DNA of 64,000 nucleotides from Escherichia coli 042 (GCF_000027125.1 NC_017626.1); one strand, 5' to 3'; shown: positions 61,907 through 62,966, counted from the first letter of the stretch. Notes: generated from the sequence alone by a model not told the origin. Numbers and translations: made by a program.

Positions 61907-62080
61907 TCAGATTAAATTAATCTTGACATCATAGCTTTCAAGACCCGTCATTTTTTCCCGTGCGGTAAACTGAATACTGGTAACTTCTTTCCCGGTCTTT
62001 TTCTTAAGTTCAATAATTTTTTTTGTTATATATTCAGAAATATCTGCTTCTGCTTTTGTTTTTAAGTTTTCAATATTCAT
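61907..62080 (-). CDS. gnsB: GnsA/GnsB-family small protein
   Basis: 57-aa ORF MNIENLKTKAEADISEYITKKIIELKKKTGKEVTSIQFTAREKMTGLESYDVKINLI. Confidence 0.8.
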   Translation of the reverse strand: MNIENLKTKAEADISEYITKKIIELKKKTGKEVTSIQFTAREKMTGLESYDVKINLI

Positions 62081-62251
62081 CATTTCCTCTTTTAGTCTGT
62101 TATGACTTTCCAGTTACACAGTAAGTCGATTATATGGTGCAAACGTGTAAAAGATAAGATGAAACATCGCAATAATCAACATACGATAGTCTAAATTTTA
62201 CACAAACAGACAAAGAGAATTTTCCTGAATTATCAATGCAATAGCATCAAA

Positions 62252-62404
62252 TTAACTCAAGAGCCTTATTGCTGCTTCCAGAATTTCTTCTGAAGTAACA
62301 TGTCGATCCGCGGCTACATAAATGACTTTATGATCTCCGGTCAGAGATGGAAACCCTGCGGCCATTACAGTAAGGTGTGTTTTTTCGCCATTTGGATATT
62401 CACG
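62252..62404 (-). CDS. ynfN: Small prophage protein (51 aa as in the K-12 annotation; the ORF can extend to 62479 giving 76 aa)
   Basis: MREYPNGEKTHLTVMAAGFPSLTGDHKVIYVAADRHVTSEEILEAAIRLLS with GGAG upstream; an in-frame upstream Met (MKKIIVFFNSEPAVVVPAMTGVNTI) would add a beta-strand-like N-terminus. Confidence 0.6.
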   Translation of the reverse strand, partial: REYPNGEKTHLTVMAAGFPSLTGDHKVIYVAADRHVTSEEILEAAIRLLS

Positions 62405-62523
62405 CATGATGGTGTTAACTCCAGTCATCGCTGGCACTACCACTGCTGGTTCAGAGTTAAAAAAAACTATGATTTTTTTCATGATGTTACCGTAGTATGT
62501 GAGTATCCATCGAATAGACACCA

Positions 62524-62547
62524 AGCAAAAAAGCTCCCGAAGGAGCC
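62524..62547 (-). terminator. Rho-independent terminator downstream of cspI
   Basis: Minus-strand stem ggctcc/ggagc with loop ttcg, followed by TTTTTT. Confidence 0.55.
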
Positions 62548-62753
62548 TTCATTTTCACTTTTTTAAATCCAACGACAGACGGCTGGCATTTAAGTATTGT
62601 GAAATATTATCAAATGTAATCATCATTGATTTACAAAAGATACATTTTGCCCCGAAAGGATTCATGTCAGAAACATCAAAAGATGATGTTCTATACTGGG
62701 AACCATGACAACACGGGCATCTAAAGTGAATATGGTTTGTAATATTGTCTACC

Positions 62754-62966
62754 TCAAAGCGCCACTACATGAACAGCGGCAGGACCTTTAGGTCCGTTCT
62801 CAATACCAAATTCAACTTCCTGATTCTCAGTTAATGTTTTGAAATCGTTGCTCTGAATTGCTGAGAAATGGACAAACACATCTTTGCTGCCATCTTTCGG
62901 CGTGATGAAACCAAAACCTTTTTCAGGGTTAAACCATTTCACTAAACCAGTCATTGTGTTAGACAT
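62754..62966 (-). CDS. cspI: Cold shock protein (CspA family)
   Basis: 70-aa ORF with RNP1/RNP2 motifs (KGFGFI, VFVHF) and a long upstream 5' UTR typical of csp genes. Confidence 0.85.

Follow-up and report, generated by a model that had tools for sequence, protein, structure and literature searches.

In Escherichia coli K-12, ynfN is locus b1551 of the Qin prophage; the MG1655 annotation gives it 51 residues, and the same short protein is held by UniProt (YNFN_ECOLI) and is abundant in public sequence collections. A longer version of 76 residues is recorded by RefSeq as WP_000720962.1 and corresponds to the PHROGs family phrog_3425, and neither of these entries carries a function. The PHROGs collection divides the family between phrog_3425 (76 positions) and phrog_4911 (51 positions, equivalent to residues 26-76 only), the second of which appears to be a spurious family built from truncated K-12-type annotations. 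K-12 also possesses a paralogous cassette, cspG-ymcF-ymcE-gnsA, in which a csp gene with a cold-shock leader is followed by a YmcF-like gene, a hairpin with six U residues and a terminal Gns gene; there, ymcF begins with an ATT codon 10 nt past the csp stop, and ymcE crosses the hairpin as ynfR does in the Qin cassette. The cspG locus has no homologue of ynfN however, the approximately 420 nt that bear this gene being replaced by approximately 150 unrelated nucleotides, and YmcE is unlike YnfN beyond the stretch that the hairpin encodes. As described below, the gene examined here encodes the same protein as WP_000720962.1 and phrog_3425, with nothing to distinguish them, and it occupies the same Qin locus as b1551, YNFN_ECOLI and phrog_4911, which have lost the first 25 residues by virtue of a shortened T run in K-12.

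We analyzed a stretch of 64,000 nucleotides from E. coli 042 (NC_017626.1), hereafter the window, in which the cassette runs in the order cspI, ynfQ, ynfR with its hairpin, ynfN and gnsB, such that ynfN is the fourth cistron (Table 1). The cassette is flanked by lysis genes and a terminase gene, the locus is assigned by annotation to the Qin prophage, and ynfO and ydfO are annotated as directly adjoining gnsB. The intercistronic gaps from cspI through ynfQ and ynfR to ynfN are short (10, 2 and 4 nt), and a spacer of 168 nt separates ynfN from gnsB. This synteny is kept in loci of 76-80% identity, with gnsB lying 3' of ynfN in all csp-linked cassettes, and when 5,426 complete E. coli genomes were searched by megablast with window positions 61800-63100, 2,151 of them proved to carry the locus. 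The hairpin with a T-rich tail past gnsB is likely the end of the transcription unit. A first-pass annotation of this DNA had described a cluster of small cold-shock-linked genes comprising ydfK, gnsB, ynfN and cspI. The coordinates given for gnsB and cspI match and both genes are on the minus strand, but ydfK (36409..36639) is 25 kb distant, and the annotated genes ynfQ and ynfR between cspI and ynfN had been missed. The association with cold shock is nonetheless a fair one, given the cspA-type thermoregulator on the cspI leader (found also in the divergent cassettes L072 and L084), the cold induction reported for tagged YnfR and for ynfQ (PMC6001520, PMC11228462), and the annotation of ydfK as a cold shock protein.

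Table 1. Features of the ynfN cassette in the window, in the direction of transcription, with a peptide diagnostic of the long form of YnfN.
Feature	Coordinates	Strand	Basis or remark
cspA-type thermoregulator (cspI 5' leader and coding region)	62727..63112	minus	Rfam RF01766, 112 bits (gathering score 78), E 2e-29
cspI, CspA-family cold shock protein, 70 aa	62754..62966	minus	PF00313 (CSD), E 1.6e-31; RefSeq annotation
ynfQ, YmcF-like, 62 aa, two CxxC pairs	62555..62743	minus	PF23641, E 7e-32, residues 1-62 of 62; annotated
ynfR, small ORF of 21 aa	62487..62552	minus	Annotated in MG1655 and LSN03-016011/A; spans the hairpin; stop 4 nt ahead of the ynfN ATG
Terminator-like hairpin AAGGCUCC-UUCG-GGAGCUUU followed by U6	62527..62549	minus	5 nt past the ynfQ stop codon
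ynfN, intact CDS of 76 aa	62252..62482	minus	ATG 62482..62480, stop 62254..62252
T8 homopolymer, ynfN codons 6-8 (V-F-F)	62459..62466	minus	T7 in MG1655
Met26 ATG	62405..62407	minus	Start of the 51-aa K-12 CDS; internal codon in the window
gnsB (GnsA/GnsB family)	61907..62083	minus	PF08178, E 3e-35, and RefSeq annotation; RefSeq start at 62080; last gene of the cassette
Terminator-like hairpin with T-rich tail past gnsB	61850..61880	minus	Consensus scan: 9-bp stem, tail TGTTATATTT
IIVFFNSEPAVVVPAMTGVNTIMR			Tryptic peptide that would distinguish 76-aa YnfN from the 51-aa form

The ynfN frame of the window remains open upstream of the sequence MREYPNG with which the short form begins, and translation from the in-frame ATG at 62482 yields exactly the 76-residue protein quoted in the first-pass annotation (MKKIIVFFNSEPAVVVPAMTGVNTIMREYPNG...). 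Taken alone this is weak evidence, as 25 additional codons would stay open by chance with a probability of (61/64)^25, or about 0.3. The origin of the short form is apparent from an alignment of the window with MG1655 and NA3664. The window has a run of eight T residues at 62466..62459 (GTTTTTTTTAAC) where MG1655 has seven, and this is the single difference from MG1655 in the 5' part of the gene. The 51 residues of K-12 YnfN are identical to residues 26-76 of the window protein. In K-12 the upstream ATG gives only a frame of 14 codons (peptide MKKIIVFLTLNQQW), because the loss of one nucleotide from the T run closes the upstream frame; the next in-frame ATG is that of Met26, and hence the 51-residue annotation. 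The K-12 form of YnfN is the remnant of a frameshifted gene, the largest open reading frame left after the change from T8 to T7. It had been proposed that the 51-residue annotation is truncated at its N-terminus, and in this respect the proposal was sound, as the product is probably of 76 residues. The short form is the property of K-12 however, and not a mis-called start in the present sequence, in which T8 keeps the frame open as far as the ATG at 62482.

The long form is already recorded at the level of annotation for strains that have the window sequence. The genome of LSN03-016011/A is 100% identical to the window over positions 61800-63100, and its RefSeq coding sequence is the 76-residue WP_000720962.1, 'protein YnfN'. 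PGAP also annotates 76 residues in a haplotype of 93% identity and labels a K-12-like copy 'frameshifted', and at least 1000 contigs carry the exact 76-residue sequence under the name 'protein YnfN'. A search of the open-access literature returned no discussion of the ynfN start or frameshift, and the text of the Weaver et al. preprint makes no mention of ynfN, ynfQ or cspI.

More informative than the open frame is the behavior of the upstream codons among homologues. Both word-indexed and exhaustive profile searches returned YnfN homologues of 72-76 residues that align from residue 1, and phrog_3425 matches the window protein over its whole length (E 7.2e-54, residues 1-76 on profile positions 1-76 of 76). 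A profile search of 1.8 billion representatives gave 44 family members, all of them small and uncharacterized, and the family is a narrow one of approximately 75-residue proteins in the Enterobacterales and prophages. Across 23 diverse members, with identities as low as 28%, conservation is highest in the N-terminal block MKKv(I/L)VFFN; F7 does not vary at all, and M1, N9, A57, D59 and R60 are conserved in at least 90%. The window protein has both family motifs, M-K-K-v-I-V-F-F-N at its N-terminus and A-s-D-R ahead of the C-terminal helix. Outside of the clade of E. coli and Citrobacter, on the other hand, residue 26 is variously I, S, E, Q, R, K, T, L or P. For the window together with 16 distinct coding sequences, all intact and taken from IMG/VR loci, pN/pS is 0.18 in codons 2-25 versus 0.15 in codons 27-75, and pS against the divergent clade is about 0.7, a value close to saturation at synonymous sites, in spite of which the protein is maintained. 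The first-pass annotation had suggested that conservation of the upstream codons in homologues, or synonymous drift of the kind seen in non-coding DNA, would be a means of discriminating between the two starts, and when carried out this comparison favors coding, by both the pN/pS of 0.18 and the conserved N-terminus.

The predicted structure is in agreement with this. AlphaFold2, supplied with an alignment of 17 sequences, gave a model with a mean pLDDT of 86 and a pTM of 0.73, in which strands at residues 2-7, 14-18, 24-28, 34-44 and 52-58 are followed by a helix at 64-75, and the first 30 residues score approximately 90. A start at Met26 would, on this model, cost the protein two and a half of its five strands. 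The 76-residue form beginning MKKIIVFF is supported as the true product of ynfN in the window by conservation among homologues, by the pattern of substitution and by the predicted fold. Translation from the ATG at 62482 would make use of a weak Shine-Dalgarno sequence (GGU, -3.0 kcal/mol duplex). Codons 2 and 3 are both AAA, and this, along with the ynfR stop codon 4 nt before the ATG, favors coupled initiation, such that ribosomes completing ynfR and the A-rich second and third codons would probably assist initiation at this site. Our overall reading, to which we assign a probability of roughly 0.88, is that the window has an intact ynfN of 76 codons starting at 62482, that the K-12 form is its remnant after loss of a T, and that the gene would be transcribed mainly by read-through from the cspI promoter.

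It is nonetheless appropriate to consider the other products that could arise from this frame. One could suppose that only the 51-residue form is made in the window strain as well, beginning at Met26 (62407) with the 25 upstream codons an open but untranslated leader. This would accord with the curated K-12 annotation and with UniProt, the chance of an open extension of this length is not small (see above), and the Shine-Dalgarno sequence before Met26 (GGAG, -5.9 kcal/mol duplex, at a long spacing of 11 nt) is stronger than that before Met1. We consider it highly improbable, however, as the frameshift accounts for the K-12 short form, purifying selection on the upstream codons is as strong as in the rest of the gene, and the most conserved segment of the protein is its N-terminus, whereas Met26 is replaced by nine other residues and the predicted fold draws on residues 1-28 for three of its five strands. 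Distant homologues have a good Shine-Dalgarno sequence ahead of the long start (-6 to -7.4 kcal/mol), and their codon 26 is not ATG. Production of both forms, with a C-terminal isoform of 51 residues initiated at Met26 in addition to the 76-residue protein and some function retained in K-12, strikes us as quite improbable. Most of the clade of E. coli and Citrobacter retains Met26 and the purine-rich stretch upstream of it, the K-12 ynfN mRNA is still regulated and expressed, and the T7 allele is free of further disabling changes in residues 7-76, but the absence of further decay may simply reflect a recent frameshift, the fragment would be without half of the beta sheet, and Met26 is I, T or L even in some close homologues (P0020, P0021 and P0030), and no distant homologue has it. 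To a form of 90 residues starting at TTG 62524, as produced by some automatic gene callers, we give almost no credence. The frame is indeed open to 62524 and 90-residue versions are present among JGI, ENA and Logan gene calls (P0003, P0094), yet RefSeq picks the ATG, all homologues with a full N-terminus start with MKK (the rare extensions being unconserved), and the extra 14 codons overlap ynfR in another frame, beginning 2 nt past the U-tract.

The T run itself varies in length. By exact matching to complete E. coli genomes, the T8 61-mer of the main haplotype was found 1,044 times versus 417 for the T7 60-mer, and the corresponding counts in the 93% variant haplotype are 467 and 34. T8 is the majority allele, at 1511 versus 451 exact matches for T7 with both haplotypes summed, and several laboratory strains of K-12 are among the best-listed T7 records of the main haplotype. 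Among 80 IMG/VR loci T8 was again dominant, with T7 on both haplotypes and T9 in one locus (L059). The run is a recurrent frameshift site, and some of the T7 and T9 calls could be homopolymer sequencing errors in draft or long-read assemblies. Contingency loci and homopolymer-frameshift pseudogenes provide the nearest precedent, in that a mononucleotide run in the 5' part of ynfN differs between strains (T7, T8 or T9) and switches the frame. Unlike contingency loci, there is no evidence for ynfN of rapid reversible switching, each assembly having one allele, and T7 is stable across many K-12 genomes. A second homopolymer, an A7 run made up of codons 2-3 and one further base (62473-62479, minus strand), lies 6 nt ahead of T8, and two IMG/VR loci (L064 and L067) combine A6 with T7, so that both homopolymers vary, whether by real slippage or by sequencing error.

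The first-pass annotation had also argued for the shorter form, barring co-transcription of cspI and ynfN, on the grounds that the 5' extension of ynfN overlaps the cspI terminator. The coordinates do not bear this out: the extension occupies 62482..62408, whereas the stem of the hairpin is at 62549..62530 and its U-tract at 62532..62527, leaving about 44 nt to the ATG. Nor is the hairpin placed as a terminator of cspI would be, as it follows ynfQ and sits within ynfR, not directly after cspI. A fold of the region gave -28 kcal/mol (z -3.1), the palindrome of the hairpin was also found by a scan, and the hairpin has the structure of an intrinsic terminator, namely a 9-bp stem, a UUCG loop and U6 on the transcribed strand. 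Hairpin and U6 are at the same place in all eight cassettes examined, and also past ymcF in the cspG locus, and the hairpin of one divergent cassette (L084) has a compensatory change from U-A to C-G. The ynfR ATG, however, is absent in divergent cassettes, from which we infer that the conserved element is the RNA structure and not the peptide, and the missing ATG also suggests that ynfR and ymcE may have arisen as by-products or may play a regulatory, leader-type role. ynfR and ymcE (L085 2348-2578, the K-12 cspG locus) cross the same hairpin in the same frame (APSGAFL versus LPRGAFF), the peptide stretch that they share being dictated by the RNA hairpin. Directly upstream, ynfQ has a rare ATT start (62741-62743) located 10 nt past the csp stop in all eight cassettes (the window, L052, L072, L076, L077, L081, L084 and L085, at 2185-2187 in the last). 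This start is preceded by a GAGG/AAGG Shine-Dalgarno sequence (duplex -6.9 kcal/mol in the window), and only translation from the ATT gives the domain in full, as no ATG comes before the first CxxC of the zinc-ribbon-like motif of ynfQ.

CspA-family proteins are transcription antiterminators, and for this reason cold-dependent read-through of the hairpin is plausible. The published expression data, all obtained in K-12 (with the frameshift allele) or LF82, are informative in this regard. In MG1655, YnfR-SPA was detected and was strongly induced by cold shock, with its tag encoded 3' of the hairpin (PMC6001520), and ynfQ is listed as cold-shock induced (PMC11228462). In the latter work, induction by AZT was 6.5-fold for cspI, 5.9-fold for ynfQ and 5.8-fold for ynfN, and the three genes ran parallel in their dependence upon LexA (4.3-, 4.0- and 9.9-fold, respectively) and SspA (38-, 42- and 51-fold) (PMC11228462). 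Furthermore, ynfN and cspI co-vary in four growth-phase comparisons (PMC7406224), and in LF82 the functional prophage Tritos expresses CspI and YnfN as cargo genes, at 93x and 27x over background (PMC9928086). These data favor read-through from the cspI promoter, and lend indirect support to co-transcription of ynfN with cspI, which is the reading we favor. We envisage that most transcription of ynfN would begin at the cold-inducible cspI promoter, with polymerase reading through the hairpin and U6 after ynfQ. Given the conservation of the hairpin and its resemblance to a competent terminator, the read-through transcripts may be a minor fraction, and the difference between 93x and 27x in LF82 fits partial termination.

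The principal alternative is that ynfN, together with gnsB, forms a separate unit with its own promoter at or past the hairpin, the latter then being the efficient end of the cspI-ynfQ message. Conservation of the hairpin and U6 in the manner of a true terminator, in the cspG-ymcF locus included, is in keeping with this; the ynfN signal in LF82, at approximately one-third that of cspI, would be compatible with it, and distant ynfN homologues occur alone in other contexts, the family members without csp necessarily having promoters of their own. We regard this alternative as unlikely in the window, if a serious contender, as the distance from the U-tract to the ATG is only about 44 nt, and a consensus scan of the interval between the hairpin and the ynfN ATG found no promoter-like site; YnfR tagged downstream of the hairpin is cold-induced, and in two RNA-seq studies ynfN behaves as cspI and ynfQ do, both in its fold induction and in its dependence on regulators. 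A rather improbable elaboration of read-through is that ynfQ, ynfR, the hairpin and ynfN constitute a translation-coupled attenuator, in which either ribosomes finishing ynfQ, or crossing the hairpin on ynfR, mask the 5' arm of the terminator or CspA-family proteins that accumulate in the cold, CspI among them, melt the hairpin, with T8 acting by slippage as an on/off switch for YnfN in natural populations. Were this the case, ynfN and gnsB would be expressed only during active translation of the upstream cold-shock cistrons. Read-through from the cspI promoter remains our preferred account of ynfN transcription.

As to the function of YnfN, neither Pfam nor NCBIfam gave a match, the PHROGs match carries only 'unknown function', and a search for structural neighbors found none. 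The context of the cassette suggests prophage cargo, and the protein is most likely a stress- or cold-expressed accessory protein of the prophage, a role that is putative. By analogy to GnsA/YmcE, we also considered whether YnfN and GnsB might form a toxin-antitoxin pair, and rejected the idea: gnsA occurs without ynfN, ynfN homologues occur without an adjacent gns gene, YmcE is unrelated, and the spacer is 168 nt long. The neighborhoods of distant homologues contain hints of stress or anti-defense cargo and no consistent partner, and the neighbors include a divergent csp. In one such locus (L093), a homologue of 32% identity (3001-3222) occupies the lysis-terminase slot of another prophage, and directly beside it, at 2591-2839, is an 82-residue protein with the Acb2/Tad1 hairpin domain (PF24729, E 2e-9), a family of anti-defense nucleotide sponges. 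Another homologue adjoins an HSP20 gene with a FourU thermometer.

The result for ynfN is mostly one of housekeeping, and current understanding is not overturned by it. The K-12 reference entry of 51 residues, as in UniProt and EcoCyc-style resources, is a frameshifted remnant and not the native protein. Work upon YnfN should make use of the 76-residue allele, which is found in approximately three-quarters of the E. coli genomes that carry the locus, and the same caution applies to K-12-derived clone libraries, among them the ASKA set employed in PMC8228696. The arrangement of csp, a ymcF-like gene, a terminator, ynfN and gns also offers a small system in which to study terminator read-through during cold shock.

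Two further observations concern the prophage at large. At 63722|63723 the window is without 108 bp that are found in K-12 and in the otherwise 100%-identical LSN03-016011/A; this deletion costs the spanin gene rzpQ its start and the endolysin gene rrrQ its last 8 nt, and it is shared by none of the eight best complete-genome matches to the junction, the two halves being 108 nt apart in each. Lastly, the stfQ-side and nohA-side sequences, which adjoin one another in K-12 Qin, are separated in the window by about 21 kb of prophage DNA (positions 38921-60136), and the prophage of the window is much less deleted than its K-12 counterpart.
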